IMG/VR virus record: IMGVR_UViG_2740892236_000004
Location: 1 to 11,680 of that record
Reading direction: 5' to 3' (one strand)
DNA: 11,680 nt
DNA from: a virus
Lineage: Duplodnaviria; Heunggongvirae; Uroviricota; Caudoviricetes
The notes beneath the pieces are model-generated. The model worked only from the letters and a program-made list of their open reading frames with translations. It had not been told where the DNA came from and did not search any database. Shown here piece after piece: positions 1,371 through 7,675 of the stretch. Made by a program: the position numbers and the translations under genes. The first letter of the stretch is position 1, and each line of letters starts with the position of its first letter.

Positions 1371-2303
1371 ATGACCGATATAAACGATGTAATCAAGACC
1401 ATTGATGAACTTATTGATGGCGGCGTGCTGACGCAGTATGCCATCGCCAGAGAGGCGGGAATTTCCGACGGCACATTATCGGCTTTCCGCAAGGGGAAAT
1501 ATAAAGGCGATAACGCCGCTGTGGCTGCTTCCCTGCGCTCCTGGTATGAGAACTGGAATAAACAAAGCGCACTGCCGGAACCGCCGCAGTTTGTGGAAAC
1601 TCAGACAGTCCAGGAGCTGCGCGCACTGTTTCAGGCGGTTCGCCTGATGGGCTGTATTAACGTTATTGTGGGCGTACCGGGTGTGGGTAAAACGGCCACT
1701 GCCCGTAATTACTGCCAGGAGCAACCAAACACCTGGATGATCACCCTGTCACCCGCGCACTCCAGCGTCACGGAGTGTCTGCTGGAGCTGGCCGATGCGC
1801 TGGGGATTGATTACACCCGCGCGAACAAAGGGGCATTATCCCGCGCCATCCGCCGTCGCCTGATGGGAACGCGTGGACTGGTGATTGTGGATGAGGCGGA
1901 TCATCTTGGTATTGACGGTCTGGAGCAACTCCGGGCAATTCAGGACGCCTCGGGGATCGGGATGGTGCTTATTGGTAACCCGCGCGGATTGTTTAAAGGT
2001 GGACGCCGCGCCTTTGATGATTTATCGCGCCTGTTCAGCCGTCTTGCCCGTACAAAACAACTTCGCAAGGCCAAAAAGGCGGATGTGCTGGCCATTGCCA
2101 TGGCGTGGGGGATCAGTGGTGAGGCCGAGCTGGCCGTCATGCAGGCTATCGCTGAAAAGCCGGGAGCGTTACGCGTTCTGACACATACGCTTAACCAGGC
2201 GTGGCTCACCGCCAGCGGTGAAGGCGCGGCGCTGACAGAAAAACATATTAATGCGGCCTTTAAAGAGGTTTATACCAACCCTGAATTACTCTCACAGGTG
2301 TGA
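1371..2303 (+). CDS. B: Mu B-type DNA transposition / target-DNA activator protein (AAA+ ATPase with N-terminal HTH)
   Basis: 310-aa ORF. ATG 1371 is preceded by GAGGT at a 6-nt spacing. Walker A motif GVPGVGKTA and Walker B-like hhhhDEAD (LVIVDEADHL). Size (Mu B is about 312 aa) and position directly after the transposase gene both fit. Confidence 0.9.
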   Translation: MTDINDVIKTIDELIDGGVLTQYAIAREAGISDGTLSAFRKGKYKGDNAAVAASLRSWYENWNKQSALPEPPQFVETQTVQELRALFQAVRLMGCINVIVGVPGVGKTATARNYCQEQPNTWMITLSPAHSSVTECLLELADALGIDYTRANKGALSRAIRRRLMGTRGLVIVDEADHLGIDGLEQLRAIQDASGIGMVLIGNPRGLFKGGRRAFDDLSRLFSRLARTKQLRKAKKADVLAIAMAWGISGEAELAVMQAIAEKPGALRVLTHTLNQAWLTASGEGAALTEKHINAAFKEVYTNPELLSQV

Positions 2304-2305
2304 TT

Positions 2306-2527
2306 ATGGCGGTATTTAATATTCCTGATATTTACGGACGCTTTTACCTGGTTAATTTCGATAACGTGAAGGTGATTTCACTGGCCGAAAATAAAGAATG
2401 TGGCGATTTACTTTTTGAATTTAATGACCGCACACGAATGGTGATATCTGCCGGACTTGATCGCGAAGGTGCGACAGAAGTTTACAGCGGAATATGCCGT
2501 TCTGTTGGTGCGAAACAAGTCAGCTAA
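2306..2527 (+). CDS. Small early protein (73 aa) at the position occupied by kil in phage Mu; function not established from sequence
   Basis: ATG 2306 follows AGGTG at a 5-nt spacing and lies 2 nt after the B stop (TGA 2301-2303); an in-frame GTG at 2300 is an alternative start. Translation MAVFNIPDIYGRFYLVNFDNVKVISLAENKECGDLLFEFNDRTRMVISAGLDREGATEVYSGICRSVGAKQVS. The kil assignment rests on position and size only. Confidence 0.55.
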   Translation: MAVFNIPDIYGRFYLVNFDNVKVISLAENKECGDLLFEFNDRTRMVISAGLDREGATEVYSGICRSVGAKQVS

Positions 2528-2539
2528 ATGAGGTGTTAT

Positions 2540-2794
2540 ATGAATATGCAATCCTGCGGTAACAAAATGAATTTATTCGACTCCCTGAACAGCGCGCGCC
2601 GTCTGACCGAACTTGCCGGTGCGGTACTGGAACGCAGTAAGCGCTATCCGCAACGTTTTGCACTGAAAACCACGCCGCCGGTAGGCAACGTGCAGGGAAC
2701 CGGTGAAATTGAAATCACCATACAGACCAACGGCCTGCGCCGCCGTGTGAAGGCCACCCGCATCAGCGGCTGCACGGTTTACTGGGAGGTGTGA
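2540..2794 (+). CDS. Hypothetical early protein (about 84 aa)
   Basis: ORF with GAGG 6 nt upstream of ATG 2540 (in-frame ATG 2528 is also possible). Sits in the co-directional early gene string. No recognisable motif. Confidence 0.5.
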   Translation: MNMQSCGNKMNLFDSLNSARRLTELAGAVLERSKRYPQRFALKTTPPVGNVQGTGEIEITIQTNGLRRRVKATRISGCTVYWEV

Positions 2795-2795
2795 G

Positions 2796-3077
2796 GTGAA
2801 AAAAAATCTCATTGCATGGGCGTGGTCGAGTGGTCTTATTGAGTTTGGTTACGTCCTGCCGGAAGGTGCATTGCCGATAGTTGCCGGAAAGCCTGCCACG
2901 GTACGGCATGTGATTGAGGTTATGGCGCGTCATGGACGTGATGAACAGGAGCAGTTACTGGTTCCGGGGATACCGGAAGCGGTGACGGAGGAAGAAGCCT
3001 TTAATGCCATGATTCGGTTCTGCCGTGAGGTTAGACGCCGGGTCAGTTATCCAAACAGAACGAGGACCAGAGGATGA
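2796..3077 (+). CDS. Hypothetical early protein (93 aa)
   Basis: GTG 2796 is preceded by GGAGG (2785-2789). It lies 1 nt after the upstream TGA (2792-2794) and its own TGA (3075-3077) overlaps the next ATG (3074), indicating translational coupling. Confidence 0.55.
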   Translation: MKKNLIAWAWSSGLIEFGYVLPEGALPIVAGKPATVRHVIEVMARHGRDEQEQLLVPGIPEAVTEEEAFNAMIRFCREVRRRVSYPNRTRTRG

Positions 3078-3346
3078 GTAAAGTCGTACGCATTATTTTC
3101 GAATACAAGGAAGATGTTATCTGCAAAAACTCTGATGGCAGCACGCACAGAGGGGTAAGTCTGGATATACGTTCAACCGGAATAAAGAAGAAAGATAATG
3201 GACCCGCCATGATTTTTGGGGTGGTTATGCTGGCAGAAAGCAGAAACTTCGCAGAGTTTGTGGCAATGAAAGCCAGTGCATTCATGAAAGACAGAGGCAT
3301 GGCTTCCGGGGTTATTAACGGTAATGAATTTAATCAACAGGGGTAA
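3074..3346 (+). CDS. Hypothetical small protein, paralog 1 of a tandem pair (N-terminus MSKVVRIIFEY...)
   Basis: ATG 3074 with GAGGA upstream. 90 aa. Lower-GC segment. N-terminus and internal blocks resemble the next ORF. Confidence 0.55.
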   Translation: MSKVVRIIFEYKEDVICKNSDGSTHRGVSLDIRSTGIKKKDNGPAMIFGVVMLAESRNFAEFVAMKASAFMKDRGMASGVINGNEFNQQG

Positions 3347-3350
3347 TTCC

Positions 3351-3644
3351 ATGAGCAAAGTACGCGTTATTTTTGAATTTAATCATGTTTCGCATGACGA
3401 AAAGTTGGCAGGCAATGACTGTGTTGAAGTGCATGAAAAGATTGGAGTGGATGTGAAAACAGAACGTGATACGGATAACAGGCCGACGTCACTCTGTGAC
3501 GTTTATGCAAGTATTCTCCAGTATCACAGTCCTGCAATTATTCAGTTTCTCTCAGCGGAATTTCAGGCATCTGCACAGTCTTTTGGAGCGGATGCCATCA
3601 TTAAACGCCACCGCGTGCATAAAGCATCAGGCACACTGCAATAA
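3351..3644 (+). CDS. Hypothetical small protein, paralog 2 of a tandem pair (N-terminus MSKVRVIFEF...)
   Basis: ATG 3351 with GGGG 7-8 nt upstream, 4 nt after the preceding TAA. The ORF track's longer 3324 start is in the same frame but overlaps the previous gene. Shared blocks with the upstream ORF: MSKV-R-IFE, D-NGP/D-NRP, AEF-A--AS-F. Confidence 0.55.
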   Translation: MSKVRVIFEFNHVSHDEKLAGNDCVEVHEKIGVDVKTERDTDNRPTSLCDVYASILQYHSPAIIQFLSAEFQASAQSFGADAIIKRHRVHKASGTLQ

Positions 3645-3655
3645 GGAAAAACAAA

Positions 3656-4186
3656 ATGGCTAAACGCGTTACAAAATTAAAGGCCGCAGCCGAGGCGGCA
3701 CCGCAGACCCGGGAAGAAGTCAGCCGTGATATCCGCACCCTGGGAGATATTCAGCGAGAGGCGCTGCGCCTGGAAACGGCGATGAATGACGAAGTGGCAG
3801 AAATCACCGCCCGTTATACGCCGCAGATTGAAAATCTTAAAAAGCAAATCAAAGTGCTTTTTAAAGGGATTCAGGACTGGTGCAAAACCAACCGTGATGA
3901 GCTGACGAACGGCGGCAAAACCAAAACAGCCAATCTGACCACCGGAACGGTGTCATGGCGGCTGGGAACGCCATCATGCAGCGTCAGCCGTGATGTGGAA
4001 GGTGTGATTGAAATGCTGCGCCGTATGGGGCTTGAGCGTTTCATCCGCACGAAAGAGGAAGTGAACAAGGAAGCCGTCCTGGCGGAGCCGGATGCTGTGA
4101 AAGGCATTGCCGGTATCAAGGTGAATAAAGGCGCTGAAAGTTTTTATGTCGAGCCTTTTGAACAGGACGCCGGACTGAATAAATAA
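3656..4186 (+). CDS. gam: Gam-like host-nuclease inhibitor (Mu Gam family, DNA-end-binding)
   Basis: 176 aa (Mu Gam is about 174 aa). Blocks such as LRLETAMNDEVAEITARY, ANRDELTNGGKTKTANLTTGTVSWR, GLERFIRTKEEVNKEAVLAEPDAVKGIAGI and FYVEPFEQ match my recollection of Mu Gam closely. AAGGA lies 8 nt upstream of ATG 3656. Confidence 0.88.
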   Translation: MAKRVTKLKAAAEAAPQTREEVSRDIRTLGDIQREALRLETAMNDEVAEITARYTPQIENLKKQIKVLFKGIQDWCKTNRDELTNGGKTKTANLTTGTVSWRLGTPSCSVSRDVEGVIEMLRRMGLERFIRTKEEVNKEAVLAEPDAVKGIAGIKVNKGAESFYVEPFEQDAGLNK

Positions 4187-4331
4187 CACCGCATTAATCA
4201 ATTAAATATCACTTCATTTTAATTATGGCGCTCGCGTCAGGGGACTGCTTGCGCCTGAAAACAGAAAATAAGGGTTAAGAAATATGAAATACGTTTATAT
4301 CGTCATTAATAATGTGGTGGGGAAATAAATC

Positions 4332-4865
4332 ATGATTGATGCAAAAGTGCTTGAAGGGGTTAAAAACTGGCTGTGTATTTATGGCCGCCTGACCTGCGGT
4401 GTACTGGCTGAAAAAATGAATATGCCGCCATCCTCCATGGTTTATTTTCTGCGTGATGCGGTTGATGCAGGCGTGCTGACGGAATGTAACGGTTTTTATG
4501 ATATTCCGCGCCCCCGCCCGGTGCAGCCGGTTCGTCGCAAATGCAGCCAGGAATCTGCGGCTGATGATGTTCAGTGGTGCGGCTTCAGAAAATCCCTGCC
4601 ATGGATTGAGGGGCATGATATTCCGTCGATGGCGTGGGAATTTGCTCAGGGCGTTCTGACCTGTGAAACCGTTTATGTGGTGGCTGAAGTTGATGAGCAG
4701 GCCATGAAAGAAGGCGTGCCCCAGTTTGTGATGGCGTATATCGACATACGCCTGGGCGTCATTATCTGCGGTTTAAGCGGCTGGAATATCACTGAACATG
4801 TTCTGCGCTACCTGATTGTTGACCGGACAGCAGCGCCTGCCGGGATATCTGCGGAGGTGGCGTAA
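4332..4865 (+). CDS. Hypothetical protein (177 aa), first gene of a six-gene coupled module. The N-terminal ~50 aa look like a winged-helix fold, but this is weak.
   Basis: ATG 4332 after a 145-bp AT-rich intergenic region. Stop TAA 4863-4865 overlaps the next ATG (4865). Confidence 0.55.
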   Translation: MIDAKVLEGVKNWLCIYGRLTCGVLAEKMNMPPSSMVYFLRDAVDAGVLTECNGFYDIPRPRPVQPVRRKCSQESAADDVQWCGFRKSLPWIEGHDIPSMAWEFAQGVLTCETVYVVAEVDEQAMKEGVPQFVMAYIDIRLGVIICGLSGWNITEHVLRYLIVDRTAAPAGISAEVA

Positions 4866-5380
4866 TGTTCTTTAAAACATCAAACCCTTCCGCGCTGGCT
4901 GCGTGGCAAAAATACCAGCAGGACTGCCAGAAAGTTAAGGATGAGGCAAAACGCCTTGAGGCCGTGCTGAATGTTGCGTGCCGGTCGGTATTTGTATCCG
5001 GTATCAGTGGATTTTGCTTTAAGGGACTGCGTTTTACGGAGGACAAATATCCTTTTCATCGCGACTTATGGCGAAAACCGACTGCGTCGAATGGCTGGAG
5101 CTGCACACCGCGCACATCACGTATCCCTAAAACCCTGCGTGTTGCCTCTGATGAACTGAACAGTCTGTGGCGTGAATATTCGCCCGTCACGTATGCCAGA
5201 ACCGATGCGCTGTTGTTCTGGCTGGGTATTGATTTCTCGGCAATCCTGTTTGGCCCTGTGAAGTGGTTCTGCGTTGACGATGTGATTTATCTTCAGTGCG
5301 AAGATGATTCCGCAAAACGGAAAATGACCGAAATTCTGTCTGATGAGTTTTATGCTGCCGAAAAGCGAGTCAGGGGGTGA
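4865..5380 (+). CDS. Hypothetical protein (171 aa)
   Basis: ATG 4865 overlaps the upstream stop (TAATG). No motif recognised. Confidence 0.55.
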   Translation: MFFKTSNPSALAAWQKYQQDCQKVKDEAKRLEAVLNVACRSVFVSGISGFCFKGLRFTEDKYPFHRDLWRKPTASNGWSCTPRTSRIPKTLRVASDELNSLWREYSPVTYARTDALLFWLGIDFSAILFGPVKWFCVDDVIYLQCEDDSAKRKMTEILSDEFYAAEKRVRG

Positions 5381-5383
5381 TGT

Positions 5384-5935
5384 ATGATGATTTTACAACA
5401 CATGGGGCGAAAAGGTCGTACACCCGCTCATGTCCGCGCGTGGACACCTGAAGAAGATGCGCTACTGATTGCGCTTTATTCATCCACCCCGGTTAAGGAT
5501 ATTGCTGCCAGAATAAAAAGAACTGTCTGGGCTGTATATAACCGGACTGGTGTATTGCGCAGTTCATACCCGGAGTTACTGAAATATAAACACCCAAGAT
5601 TTACACCTGATGAAGATAAGTTTATTCGAAACAATGCCAGAACAATGACCTGCCAGCAAATGGGAGAATATCTCGGACGTAATAAAGATTCTGTCAGATG
5701 TCGGGCAGGAATGATTGGTGCTGGATTAACAAAGTGCGGAGAGTTACGCCCCGGCACGCGCATATCTGATGATGATGTACGTCTTATACGTGCGCTGCGT
5801 GATTCCGATTACCCACGCCGTCTGTCATTCCGGGAAATTGGCGAAAAGTTTGGAATATCTGAACATTCTGCTCACGCAGTTTATTACCGTCGCCGGACTG
5901 CCGAGGACGCTGTATTACGGGAGTTAACGCCATGA
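5384..5935 (+). CDS. Putative DNA-binding protein with three tandem HTH-like repeats (Myb/SANT-like or sigma-70 region-4/LuxR-like)
   Basis: 183 aa, with GGGGG 6 nt upstream of ATG 5384. Three internally similar ~40-aa segments: WTPEEDALLIALYSSTPVKDIAARIKRTVWAVYNRTGVL / FTPDEDKFIRNNARTMTCQQMGEYLGRNKDSVRCRAGMIGAGL / ISDDDVRLIRALRDSDYPRRLSFREIGEKFGISEHSAHAVYYRR. Confidence 0.6.
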   Translation: MMILQHMGRKGRTPAHVRAWTPEEDALLIALYSSTPVKDIAARIKRTVWAVYNRTGVLRSSYPELLKYKHPRFTPDEDKFIRNNARTMTCQQMGEYLGRNKDSVRCRAGMIGAGLTKCGELRPGTRISDDDVRLIRALRDSDYPRRLSFREIGEKFGISEHSAHAVYYRRRTAEDAVLRELTP

Positions 5936-6261
5936 TAACGACCTTATTTGTTGAATCAGATGAACCTCTTGTGTGTGCCGCCGGAATGCCGCTCTGTGGC
6001 GGAACGCTGACCGGTGTTTATTTCGGGGATTTACGCGGTTATCCCTGGCATTCACTGAATGATGCTTTCCCACCTGATATGGAGGCTGTCGTGCTGATTG
6101 TTCAGTATGGTCACCGTCAGGAGCTGCGCATCGGCCATATGGGGTATGAAGGCTTTTTTGTTGATGAAGAAACCGGAGCCTGCCTTGAAGATGAAGACGG
6201 ACAGGTGACGCACTGGTGTCATATTTCGGCTTTACCGGAATTACGGGAGGTGAATGCGTGA
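5932..6261 (+). CDS. Hypothetical protein (109 aa)
   Basis: ATG 5932 overlaps the upstream TGA (ATGA). Its stop TGA 6259-6261 overlaps the next start (GTGA). Confidence 0.5.
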   Translation: MITTLFVESDEPLVCAAGMPLCGGTLTGVYFGDLRGYPWHSLNDAFPPDMEAVVLIVQYGHRQELRIGHMGYEGFFVDEETGACLEDEDGQVTHWCHISALPELREVNA

Positions 6262-6623: not shown

Positions 6624-6932
6624 ATGAGTATTGAATTAAGATCGTCTTATGAATATCGCAAAATCCTTATCGCCGGAGGGATGAAACCGGAAGATGCTGA
6701 AAAATTCGTTTCTTTTATGGATAAAGAATGTGACAAGCGGGATATGCCAGAAATTATTATGGATGACATGATTCTGGATTCAGCCGTAGCGTTAAGTCCG
6801 TTATGGATTGTGCATACCCTTGCGGAAATAGCTAAAAGAAGTGACAAGCAGGCGGCTGTCGCCGCCCTGCGATTACTGGCTGAATTAAGTTGTTCAGTCA
6901 ATCCCAATACGTTCTTTGACGAACCTGGTTAA
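6624..6932 (+). CDS. Hypothetical protein (102 aa). Its 3' end overlaps the 3' end of the reverse-strand gene by about 39 nt.
   Basis: ATG 6624 with AGGTGA 4-5 nt upstream. AT-rich. Stop TAA 6930-6932. Confidence 0.55.
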   Translation: MSIELRSSYEYRKILIAGGMKPEDAEKFVSFMDKECDKRDMPEIIMDDMILDSAVALSPLWIVHTLAEIAKRSDKQAAVAALRLLAELSCSVNPNTFFDEPG

Positions 6933-7611
6933 CATTGATTTGGTAACTTCTTTAATTAGATCAAATGGTGCGTCTGTAAACTCCTTTTTGATTCTTTCAA
7001 GGATTGGTTTTTTTCTCAGGGCGTTAGCTAAATCANNNNNNNNNNTAGTCAATCCCAATACGTTCTTTGACGAACCTGGTTAACATTGATTTGGTAACTT
7101 CTTTGATTAGATCAAATGGCGCGTCTGTAAACTCCTTTTTGATTCTTTCAAGGATTGGTTTTTTTCTCAGGGCGTTAGCTAAATCATGCCCCTGCTGGGT
7201 AAGCATAATGGGCGTGTTTCTGAAACCAACGCCCAGAGAATGGAAAAAGAAACCAATATATTTGGGTGTTTCTGACTGCATATCACCATTAACAATTGAG
7301 CCATTATCAGCGAGAAGCATAAGATGAAAAACTTTTTTATCCTNNNNNNNNNNAGTAAGCATAATGGGCGTGTTTCTGAAACCAACGCCCAGAGAATGAA
7401 AAAAGAAACCAATATATTTTGGTGTTTCTGACCGCATATCACCATTAACAATTGAGCCATTATCAGCGAGAAGCATAAGATGAAAAACTTTTTTATCCTT
7501 TTCCTCTCCTTCTGCCTCAGCCATGCCCAGATCCTGTAGTGTAAGGAAAGGTGTTTCAGCATCCTGAAAAGTTGTGAGAATACTTAATACTTCATCGTAA
7601 TCTATTTTCAT
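6894..7611 (-). CDS. Hypothetical protein on the reverse strand (about 136 aa once the duplicated scaffold overlaps are collapsed). The only reverse-strand gene in the window; candidate accessory (moron) gene.
   Basis: Reverse-strand ATG (complement of 7609-7611) with AAAGG 7-8 nt upstream. Translation MKIDYDEVLSILTTFQDAETPFLTLQDLGMAEAEGEEKDKKVFHLMLLADNGSIVNGDMQSETPKYIGFFFHSLGVGFRNTPIMLTQQGHDLANALRKKPILERIKKEFTDAPFDLIKEVTKSMLTRFVKERIGID, stop TGA as complement of 6894-6896. Two N10 joins (7036-7045, 7344-7353) with duplicated flanks inflate the apparent length. Short hand counts put GC near 40% here versus about 56% in B. Confidence 0.6.
7036..7045. other. Scaffold join (10 N). Flanks 6896-7035 and 7047-7186 are near-identical overlaps.
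   Basis: Run of exactly 10 n. gtcaatcccaatacgttctttgacgaacctggttaacattgatttggtaacttctt... occurs on both sides with 2 substitutions seen. Confidence 0.97.
7344..7353. other. Scaffold join (10 N). Flanks 7199-7343 and 7355-7499 are near-identical overlaps.
   Basis: Run of exactly 10 n. gtaagcataatgggcgtgtttctgaaaccaacgcccagagaatg... occurs on both sides with a few substitutions. Confidence 0.97.
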
Positions 7612-7675
7612 ATCGATACCTTTAGTTTTATCCGGGCGGCGTTGCCATGCCGCCTGTTGTTACGGAGACACGATA

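Follow-up and report, generated by a model that had tools for sequence, protein, structure and literature searches.

Immediately upstream of gam, in the early region of an Escherichia coli Mu-like prophage, two small genes stand one behind the other on the same strand and begin with nearly the same residues. This raises the question of whether they come from one gene, how they came to stand in tandem, and what they may do for the phage. The window, meaning the whole stretch of 11,680 nt analyzed here, contains the early and middle region of this prophage, which we take to be of the Sp18 type. Positions 2796-3700 are 100% identical to the prophage of E. coli 600029, and many Shiga-toxin-associated genomes, those of O157:H7 included, carry the same element at about 94.5% identity. 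The preliminary description had placed two adjacent ORFs in a phage early region. Their coordinates and plus-strand orientation were confirmed, and both ORFs, called A and B below, lie between the MuB and Kil genes on one side and Gam on the other. The features of the locus are the following.

1371-2303, plus strand: MuB-type AAA+ transposition protein (PF09077 and AAA_22)
2528-2794, plus strand: Kil-like gene (phrog_2679)
2796-3077, plus strand: phrog_1518 gene, 93 aa (PHROG 1518)
3062-3077, plus strand: translation-initiation region of ORF A, with GAGGA 7 nt before the ATG (read from the sequence)
3074-3346, plus strand: ORF A, 90 aa, PHROG 4107, the putative upstream paralog (ORF list; PGAP CDS WP_000049428.1; phrog_4107 E=1.7e-54)
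3074-3106, plus strand: codons 1-11 of ORF A, MSKVVRIIFEY, the N-terminal strand motif (from alignments)
3339-3353, plus strand: A/B junction, comprising the TAA stop of A at 3344-3346, a 4-nt spacer and the start of B (read from the sequence)
3351-3644, plus strand: ORF B, 97 aa, PHROG 2230, the putative downstream copy (ORF list; PGAP CDS WP_000049310.1; phrog_2230 E=1.8e-38, full length)
3351-3380, plus strand: codons 1-10 of ORF B, MSKVRVIFEF, the N-terminal strand motif (from alignments)
3656-4186, plus strand: Gam, the Mu host-nuclease inhibitor and downstream neighbor of ORF B (PF07352 E=5.5e-42)

The operon genes are co-directional from MuB through lysozyme, with Gam followed on the plus strand by a Gp11_C protein and then by a Mor-size ORF and the lysozyme. 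In Mu, the counterpart of this part of the window is the "semi-essential" early region. That region belongs to a long transcript made early, and it contains 14 ORFs that are mostly uncharacterized, including some that are lethal to the host (PMC3325207). Between 1300 and 4900 of the window, promoter-like and terminator-like sites were no more common than in shuffled sequence, and an Rfam scan of 2300-4400 gave no credible match.

The window also contains five runs of 10 N each (391-400, 749-758, 1243-1252, 7036-7045 and 7344-7353), which join sequence pieces. Since the pieces flanking the first three runs map to overlapping stretches of a reference prophage (L082 3832-4220, 4101-4447, 4306-4788 and 4452-9453), the window is a scaffold in which the MuA end and the MuB start have been duplicated artificially. 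ORF translations recur, too, on either side of the N runs at 7036 and 7344.

The A/B segment is indeed a lower-GC patch, as first described, though the earlier spot estimate of roughly 40% becomes 43.3% when all of 3074-3644 is counted, against 51.3% for the window. Further low-GC patches occur in the window, the lowest of them at 6750-7650 (35-39%). A minus-strand ORF at 7033-7611, broken by the N runs, lies within that patch and opposes the operon direction; 6750-7650 may be an inserted moron.

Both ORFs appear to be bona fide coding sequences with conventional signals. RefSeq/PGAP calls A and B with identical boundaries in E. coli 600029, in each case as a hypothetical protein. The start of A overlaps the end of the preceding gene in an ATGA, the ATG of A occupying 3074-3076 and the TGA of the phrog_1518 gene 3075-3077. 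The ATG of B at 3351 is preceded at 7 nt by AGGGG, and the A/B junction is conserved in related loci. A longer reading frame for B is open from 3324, with the PGAP start at 3351. On the same strand, a 65-codon alternative-frame ORF (3466-3663) lies inside B and extends past the gam start, and in four proteins (P0051, P0052, P0061 and P0063) a B N-terminus runs on into this frame through a frameshift. Because no such ORF is among those listed for loci with divergent B alleles, these four proteins are probably assembly errors or pseudogenes rather than products of a real overlapping gene.

PHROGs and some RefSeq records call the upstream neighbor a "host nuclease inhibitor", and searches of its product against Pfam and NCBIfam gave no match. 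The presence of this phrog_1518 gene varies among closely related prophages. Where it is absent, its last ~40 nt still stand as a leader before A or B.

Compared directly, A and B are 22% identical over 76 aa (BLASTP E=6e-4), and their Smith-Waterman score stands at z=6.1 against shuffles. Two of the shared blocks named in the preliminary description hold in homologous register, namely the N-terminal MSKV-R-IFE and the DNGP of A, which aligns to the DNRP of B. The third, AEF-A--AS-F, does not: BLASTP, MAFFT and hhalign all pair NFAEFVAM of A with AIIQFLSA of B, leaving the two AEF strings offset. The first 10 residues supply most of the raw pairwise score. Without the first 10-11 residues, the Smith-Waterman comparison falls to z=2.06 (p about 0.05), so that A against B alone is borderline beyond the N-terminus, and in DNA the first ~30 nt of the two genes are far more alike than the remainder. 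PHROGs, which clusters by remote homology, files A (4107) and B (2230) separately. Each of these observations would fit a reading in which the likeness is due to chance, or to a shared translation-initiation or N-terminal signal on proteins that are otherwise unrelated. However, over the shared first 10 codons dN is 0.085 and dS about 1.1. With the synonymous sites saturated, the motif has been kept as protein and not as nucleotide sequence. The same saturation rules out recent gene conversion as the source of the shared 5' end.

The relationship between A and B becomes clearer through their relatives. Word-indexed searches returned close relatives only, and every one with a named source was from E. 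coli. An exhaustive HMMER search with a B profile against 1.84 billion cluster representatives found only 11 clusters, five of which are full-length distant relatives (P0066 and P0068-P0071) at 25-30% identity to B. The source names among these five are Salmonella enterica for three and Serratia for one (P0071), with P0066 being a Salmonella protein. All five fall in phrog_2230 (E=1e-14 to 1e-24), and at the N-terminal motif these distant relatives carry MSNKAQVIFTFE, the Salmonella form. ORF A matches P0066 by BLASTP at E=1e-5 over A residues 27-69, a segment in which the N-terminal motif plays no part, and it matches the Serratia protein P0071 also at E=1e-5. With the first 11 residues removed, A still gives Smith-Waterman z values of 7-8 against the distant B-like proteins.

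Profile comparisons agree with this. Aligned by hhalign, the A family and the deepened B family gave 81% probability and P=1.3e-5 (A 1-64 with B 2-69). A second, local run gave 91% probability and a score of 38.3, which none of 300 column shuffles reached (null 11.2+/-2.2). Overall, the hhalign P values are about 1e-6 to 1e-5 and the alignment is collinear over 64-74 columns. When the motif was trimmed from both alignments, the register stayed the same with a score of 18.9, reached by one of the 300 shuffles (p about 0.005). A deeper B profile, built from E. coli, Salmonella and Serratia members, was searched with hmmsearch against the 3,166 unique ORFs of all fetched loci and recovered 24 of 24 A alleles (E=1.8e-5 to 0.08), with the first unrelated ORF appearing only at E=2.1. 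In reverse, the A profile ranked 25 B or B-like proteins before anything else. It is the intermediate B-like proteins from Salmonella and Serratia that make the A/B homology firm, and with these related sequences included the similarity is significant well past the N-terminus. As judged from the sequences, A and B are real, very distant homologs, which bears out the earlier suggestion of divergent paralogs. The chance reading is accordingly disfavored and, in our estimate, very improbable: a collinear alignment of this length, the motif-independent match to P0066 and the specificity of the reciprocal searches all argue against it.

The published phrog_2230 HMM does not list A even at E<=10, and the exhaustive library search with the B profile does not list it at E<=0.001. 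B is a full-length member of PHROG 2230, whose members are 93-98 aa long, carry the N-terminal strand motif and adjoin gam, or a DUF3164 replacement of gam, directly upstream. A shares the fold-defining columns and the position of this family, but it is filed apart as PHROG 4107, and the relationship emerges only via a deeper custom profile or intermediate sequences.

The loci that encode the distant relatives bear on which arrangement is ancestral. In five Salmonella loci (L083-L087) the order is Kil, a phrog_1518 homolog, a single B-like gene, and then Gam or DUF3164. Gam directly follows the B-like gene in L085-L087; in L083 and L084, a DUF3164 protein (5303-5941) stands in gam's place directly after it. 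The 90-aa gene before the B-like gene in the Salmonella loci is the phrog_1518 homolog, not A, and an ATGA overlap joins it to the B-like gene (4732-5004 / 5001-5294), as occurs before A. The Serratia locus L118 has the order Kil, single B-like gene, Gam. Among E. coli loci, those of strain CI5 (L119) and of viral contig L010 have B without A, and in both the leader of B is the one that precedes A in two-gene prophages. The copy-number variation one would look for after a tandem duplication is thus found at this very position, with a single B-like gene in Salmonella, Serratia, CI5 and L010. Because these prophages, among them a few from E. coli, hold only one B-like gene here, A appears to be the extra, faster-diverging copy. 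Its neighbor B is orthologous to the one B-like gene that Mu-like prophages of Salmonella and Serratia carry. Read most simply, the ancestral state was one gene, and the tandem pair came about in one E. coli lineage.

Across 5,426 complete E. coli genomes, A is present in 228 (271 places) and B in 232 (274 places), and no intact A without B was seen in the E. coli genomes examined. A word-indexed search found no A outside E. coli, the matching proteins either being named E. coli or carrying no name, and neither the A profile nor P0068 had a match in scans of GTDB representative genomes. In a tblastn search of a phage collection with A and B, only two Stx phages with an inserted Mu-like element were hit; Mu itself was unmatched.

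Such near-complete co-occurrence could suggest that A and B form a two-protein module, for example a heterodimer assembled via the shared N-terminal strand, rather than two independent effectors. The tight packing of the genes, with a spacer of 4 nt, is consistent with this, as are the opposite net charges of the products (A is basic with a pI of 9.25, B near neutral at 6.27) and the fact that the same N-terminal strand is the most conserved element of both proteins. However, B needs no partner, since B-like genes occur alone in CI5, L010, Salmonella and Serratia, and deep A alleles stand beside B alleles that hardly differ, an observation that speaks against close co-evolution. We regard a dedicated A/B module as quite unlikely.

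The pair had been put forward as genes under diversifying pressure, a view that the allelic variation does not bear out. Pairwise Nei-Gojobori dN/dS among alleles from related viral contigs is 0.30 for A (17 alleles) and 0.39 for B. Both values are well below 1, though higher than the 0.10-0.21 of their neighbors (Gam 0.10, Kil 0.11, the phrog_1518 gene 0.13, gp11 0.17 and a 75-aa ORF 0.21). A and B are real genes that evolve faster than their neighbors; they are under purifying selection gene-wide, with loops and C-terminal tails that are almost neutral. In A, the N-terminal strand (codons 1-15, pN/pS 0.09) and the central hydrophobic helix (codons 46-65) have pN/pS values of 0.08-0.10, and codons 16-35, the hairpin-loop region, together with the C-terminal tail have values of 0.6-0.9. 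The highest regional values are 0.92 in A (codons 16-30) and 1.06 in B (codons 81-95, the tail).

B occurs in E. coli as two deep allelic classes (for example at loci L019, L016 and L009), which differ mainly at residues 13-35 and in the C-terminal tail (ADAIIKRHRVHKASGTLQ vs VKSSIERRSLQNAPDTLQ). The alternative class retains the G-P turn; the B allele of the window has lost it.

A also has deeply divergent alleles. The A allele of locus L122 (P0033) is only 57% identical, with dN 0.34 and dS 0.84 over codons 14-87. Over its first 13 codons there is no difference, and in the adjoining B gene dS is only 0.05. With a divergent body, an identical start and a near-identical B beside it, A behaves as a recombining allelic cassette. 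The mosaic nature of the region, in which the phrog_1518 gene and a Mu gp8-like gene also come and go among relatives, bears on a different origin of the tandem. A could be a highly divergent B ortholog from another Mu-like phage, set beside B by illegitimate or short-homology recombination, in which case the pair would be a xenolog tandem. The BLASTP values would fit, A being as similar to the B-like proteins of Salmonella and Serratia (E=1e-5) as to its neighbor B (E=6e-4). On the other hand, neither the word-indexed search nor the scan of GTDB representatives found an A-only lineage, A tracks B across E. coli genomes, and the N-terminus of A reads as in E. coli B (MSKV.R.IFE), unlike the Salmonella form given above. 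We consider the probability of a xenolog tandem to be low.

The N-terminal motif brings A nearer to E. coli B, and for the middle of A, scores with the Salmonella and Serratia proteins are as good or better, the sequences being too diverged for a reliable tree. Since A is no closer to B than it is to the Salmonella and Serratia proteins, a duplication in situ is inseparable from an old duplication with loss or from the acquisition of a divergent ortholog. The pair may therefore reflect an old duplication followed by loss, or a divergent ortholog acquired by recombination.

Taken as a whole, we favor, with somewhat better than even confidence, descent of A and B from one ancestral gene that came to stand in tandem in E. 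coli, with B conserved, A divergent, and both perhaps acting as small early binding proteins. The ancestor would have been one gene of ~95 codons just upstream of gam in enterobacterial Mu-like phages. Once it stood in tandem in an E. coli lineage, the downstream copy B would have stayed a recognizable ortholog, and the upstream copy A would have retained the ancestral 5' junction with the preceding gene as it diverged to about 20% identity. Three elements persist in A, namely the strand at its N-terminus (MSKV.R.IFE), the G-P turn and the central hydrophobic helix. The evolutionary part of this reading is much better supported than the functional part.

In the AlphaFold2 models built from family alignments, both proteins begin with a long N-terminal β-hairpin (A 3-18 and 24-35; B 4-19 and 25-39) followed by helical segments. 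The two models agree only in this respect, at low confidence throughout (pLDDT 56.1 and 56.9), and fold searches with these low-confidence models returned only noise. Searches of A, B and their distant relatives against Pfam, NCBIfam, PADLOC and PHROG matched only two PHROGs of unknown function. A comparison of PDB sequences with both profiles gave only spurious weak matches (an AI-designed TIM barrel and ribosomal proteins), and a literature search with the RefSeq accessions returned no match. Nearly every column conserved in the family is hydrophobic, Gly or Pro, and the pattern does not look catalytic. A membrane protein was ruled out because neither sequence has a hydrophobic stretch long enough (maximum Kyte-Doolittle values of 1.17 and 0.88 in a 19-residue window).

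Position alone makes the host-takeover or anti-defense role first proposed for the pair plausible; database and fold searches yielded no match in its support. Based on the early-operon position, the composition and analogy with other phages, we tentatively suggest that A and B could be small binding proteins of the early host-interaction set, a possibility that falls short of probable. Such proteins would be small, soluble and non-enzymatic; the long Pe transcript would yield them early in lytic growth, and their probable mode of action would be to bind a macromolecule of the host or the phage. The hairpin-plus-helix core may serve as a scaffold, with the variable hairpin loop and the C-terminal tails as specificity surfaces. 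B would keep the ancestral task, leaving A free to change or add a target.

The Pseudomonas phages D3112 and DMS3 are Mu-like transposable phages that offer a functional parallel. Their small proteins Tip (D3112) and Aqs1 (DMS3) act by binding host proteins such as PilB and LasR and not by catalysis, and in crystals Aqs1 is a dimer whose helix-turn-helix protomers make up a four-helix bundle (PMC11656802). The parallel with A and B is one of function only, with no sequence or fold relationship; the Aqs1 bundle differs from the hairpin and helix predicted here. Closer at hand in the operon, Mu Gam (PF07352) and Mu Kil have early accessory functions (DNA-end protection and host killing, respectively), and neither family is matched by A or B.

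Mu gp7 (E6, 87 aa, PHROG 10252) has a similar layout. It is of a size like that of A and B and lies in a similar region, between kil and gam. It starts with MAKVIIEIKN, a strand right after Met-Ala/Ser-Lys, and continues with a G-rich turn, a hydrophobic helix and ...KNDG, much as in A and B. Unlike B, gp7 is not adjacent to gam. The phrog_2230 profile matches Mu gp7 at E=0.009, a weak collinear signal, and an A+B profile aligned to the gp7 family by hhalign scored 17.7, above all 150 column shuffles (null 9.7+/-1.8; P 0.012). Across hhalign comparisons the P values range from 0.007, obtained for the gp7 family against A, to 0.24, with probabilities of 0.3-5%, and hmmsearch gave E=2.4 to 7.5. 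The link of gp7 to A and B is best treated as a lead only, below database-scale significance.

A broader proposal would make phrog_2230 and phrog_4107 one unrecognized family of small effectors, host-targeting or anti-defense and specific to enterobacterial Mu-like phages, possibly with Mu gp7/E6 as a further member. The gene would have been duplicated in E. coli, where A would be an arms-race effector against a variable host or defense target. The case for A in that role comes from its deep allelic cassettes, exchanged by recombination, and from the nearly neutral loops and tails. This proposal is speculative, and we think it rather unlikely. The A/B pair itself is a set of lineage-restricted, uncharacterized accessory genes, an ordinary product of phage accessory-gene evolution; it is as expected for phage accessory regions and leaves current views unchanged. 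Its use lies in annotation. Most of the semi-essential early region in Mu-like phages still lacks annotation, and joining two "unknown" PHROGs in one family, with a single gene next to gam as the ancestral state, gives a cleaner map of it. The fast-evolving A and the conserved B are also candidates for host-interaction screens.

Altered copies of A occur in E. coli as well. In strain 23CRST049 (L121), an IS66-family element resembling ISEc22 lies in the 3' end of A, and the remnant of A (1501-1797), residues 1-81 or so, is contained in a 98-aa ORF. The E. coli protein P0030 joins A residues 1-49 in frame to B residues 80-97. A deletion between shared TTTTGG strings (3215-3222 and 3581-3588 in the window), which stand at non-homologous positions of the two genes, could account for it.
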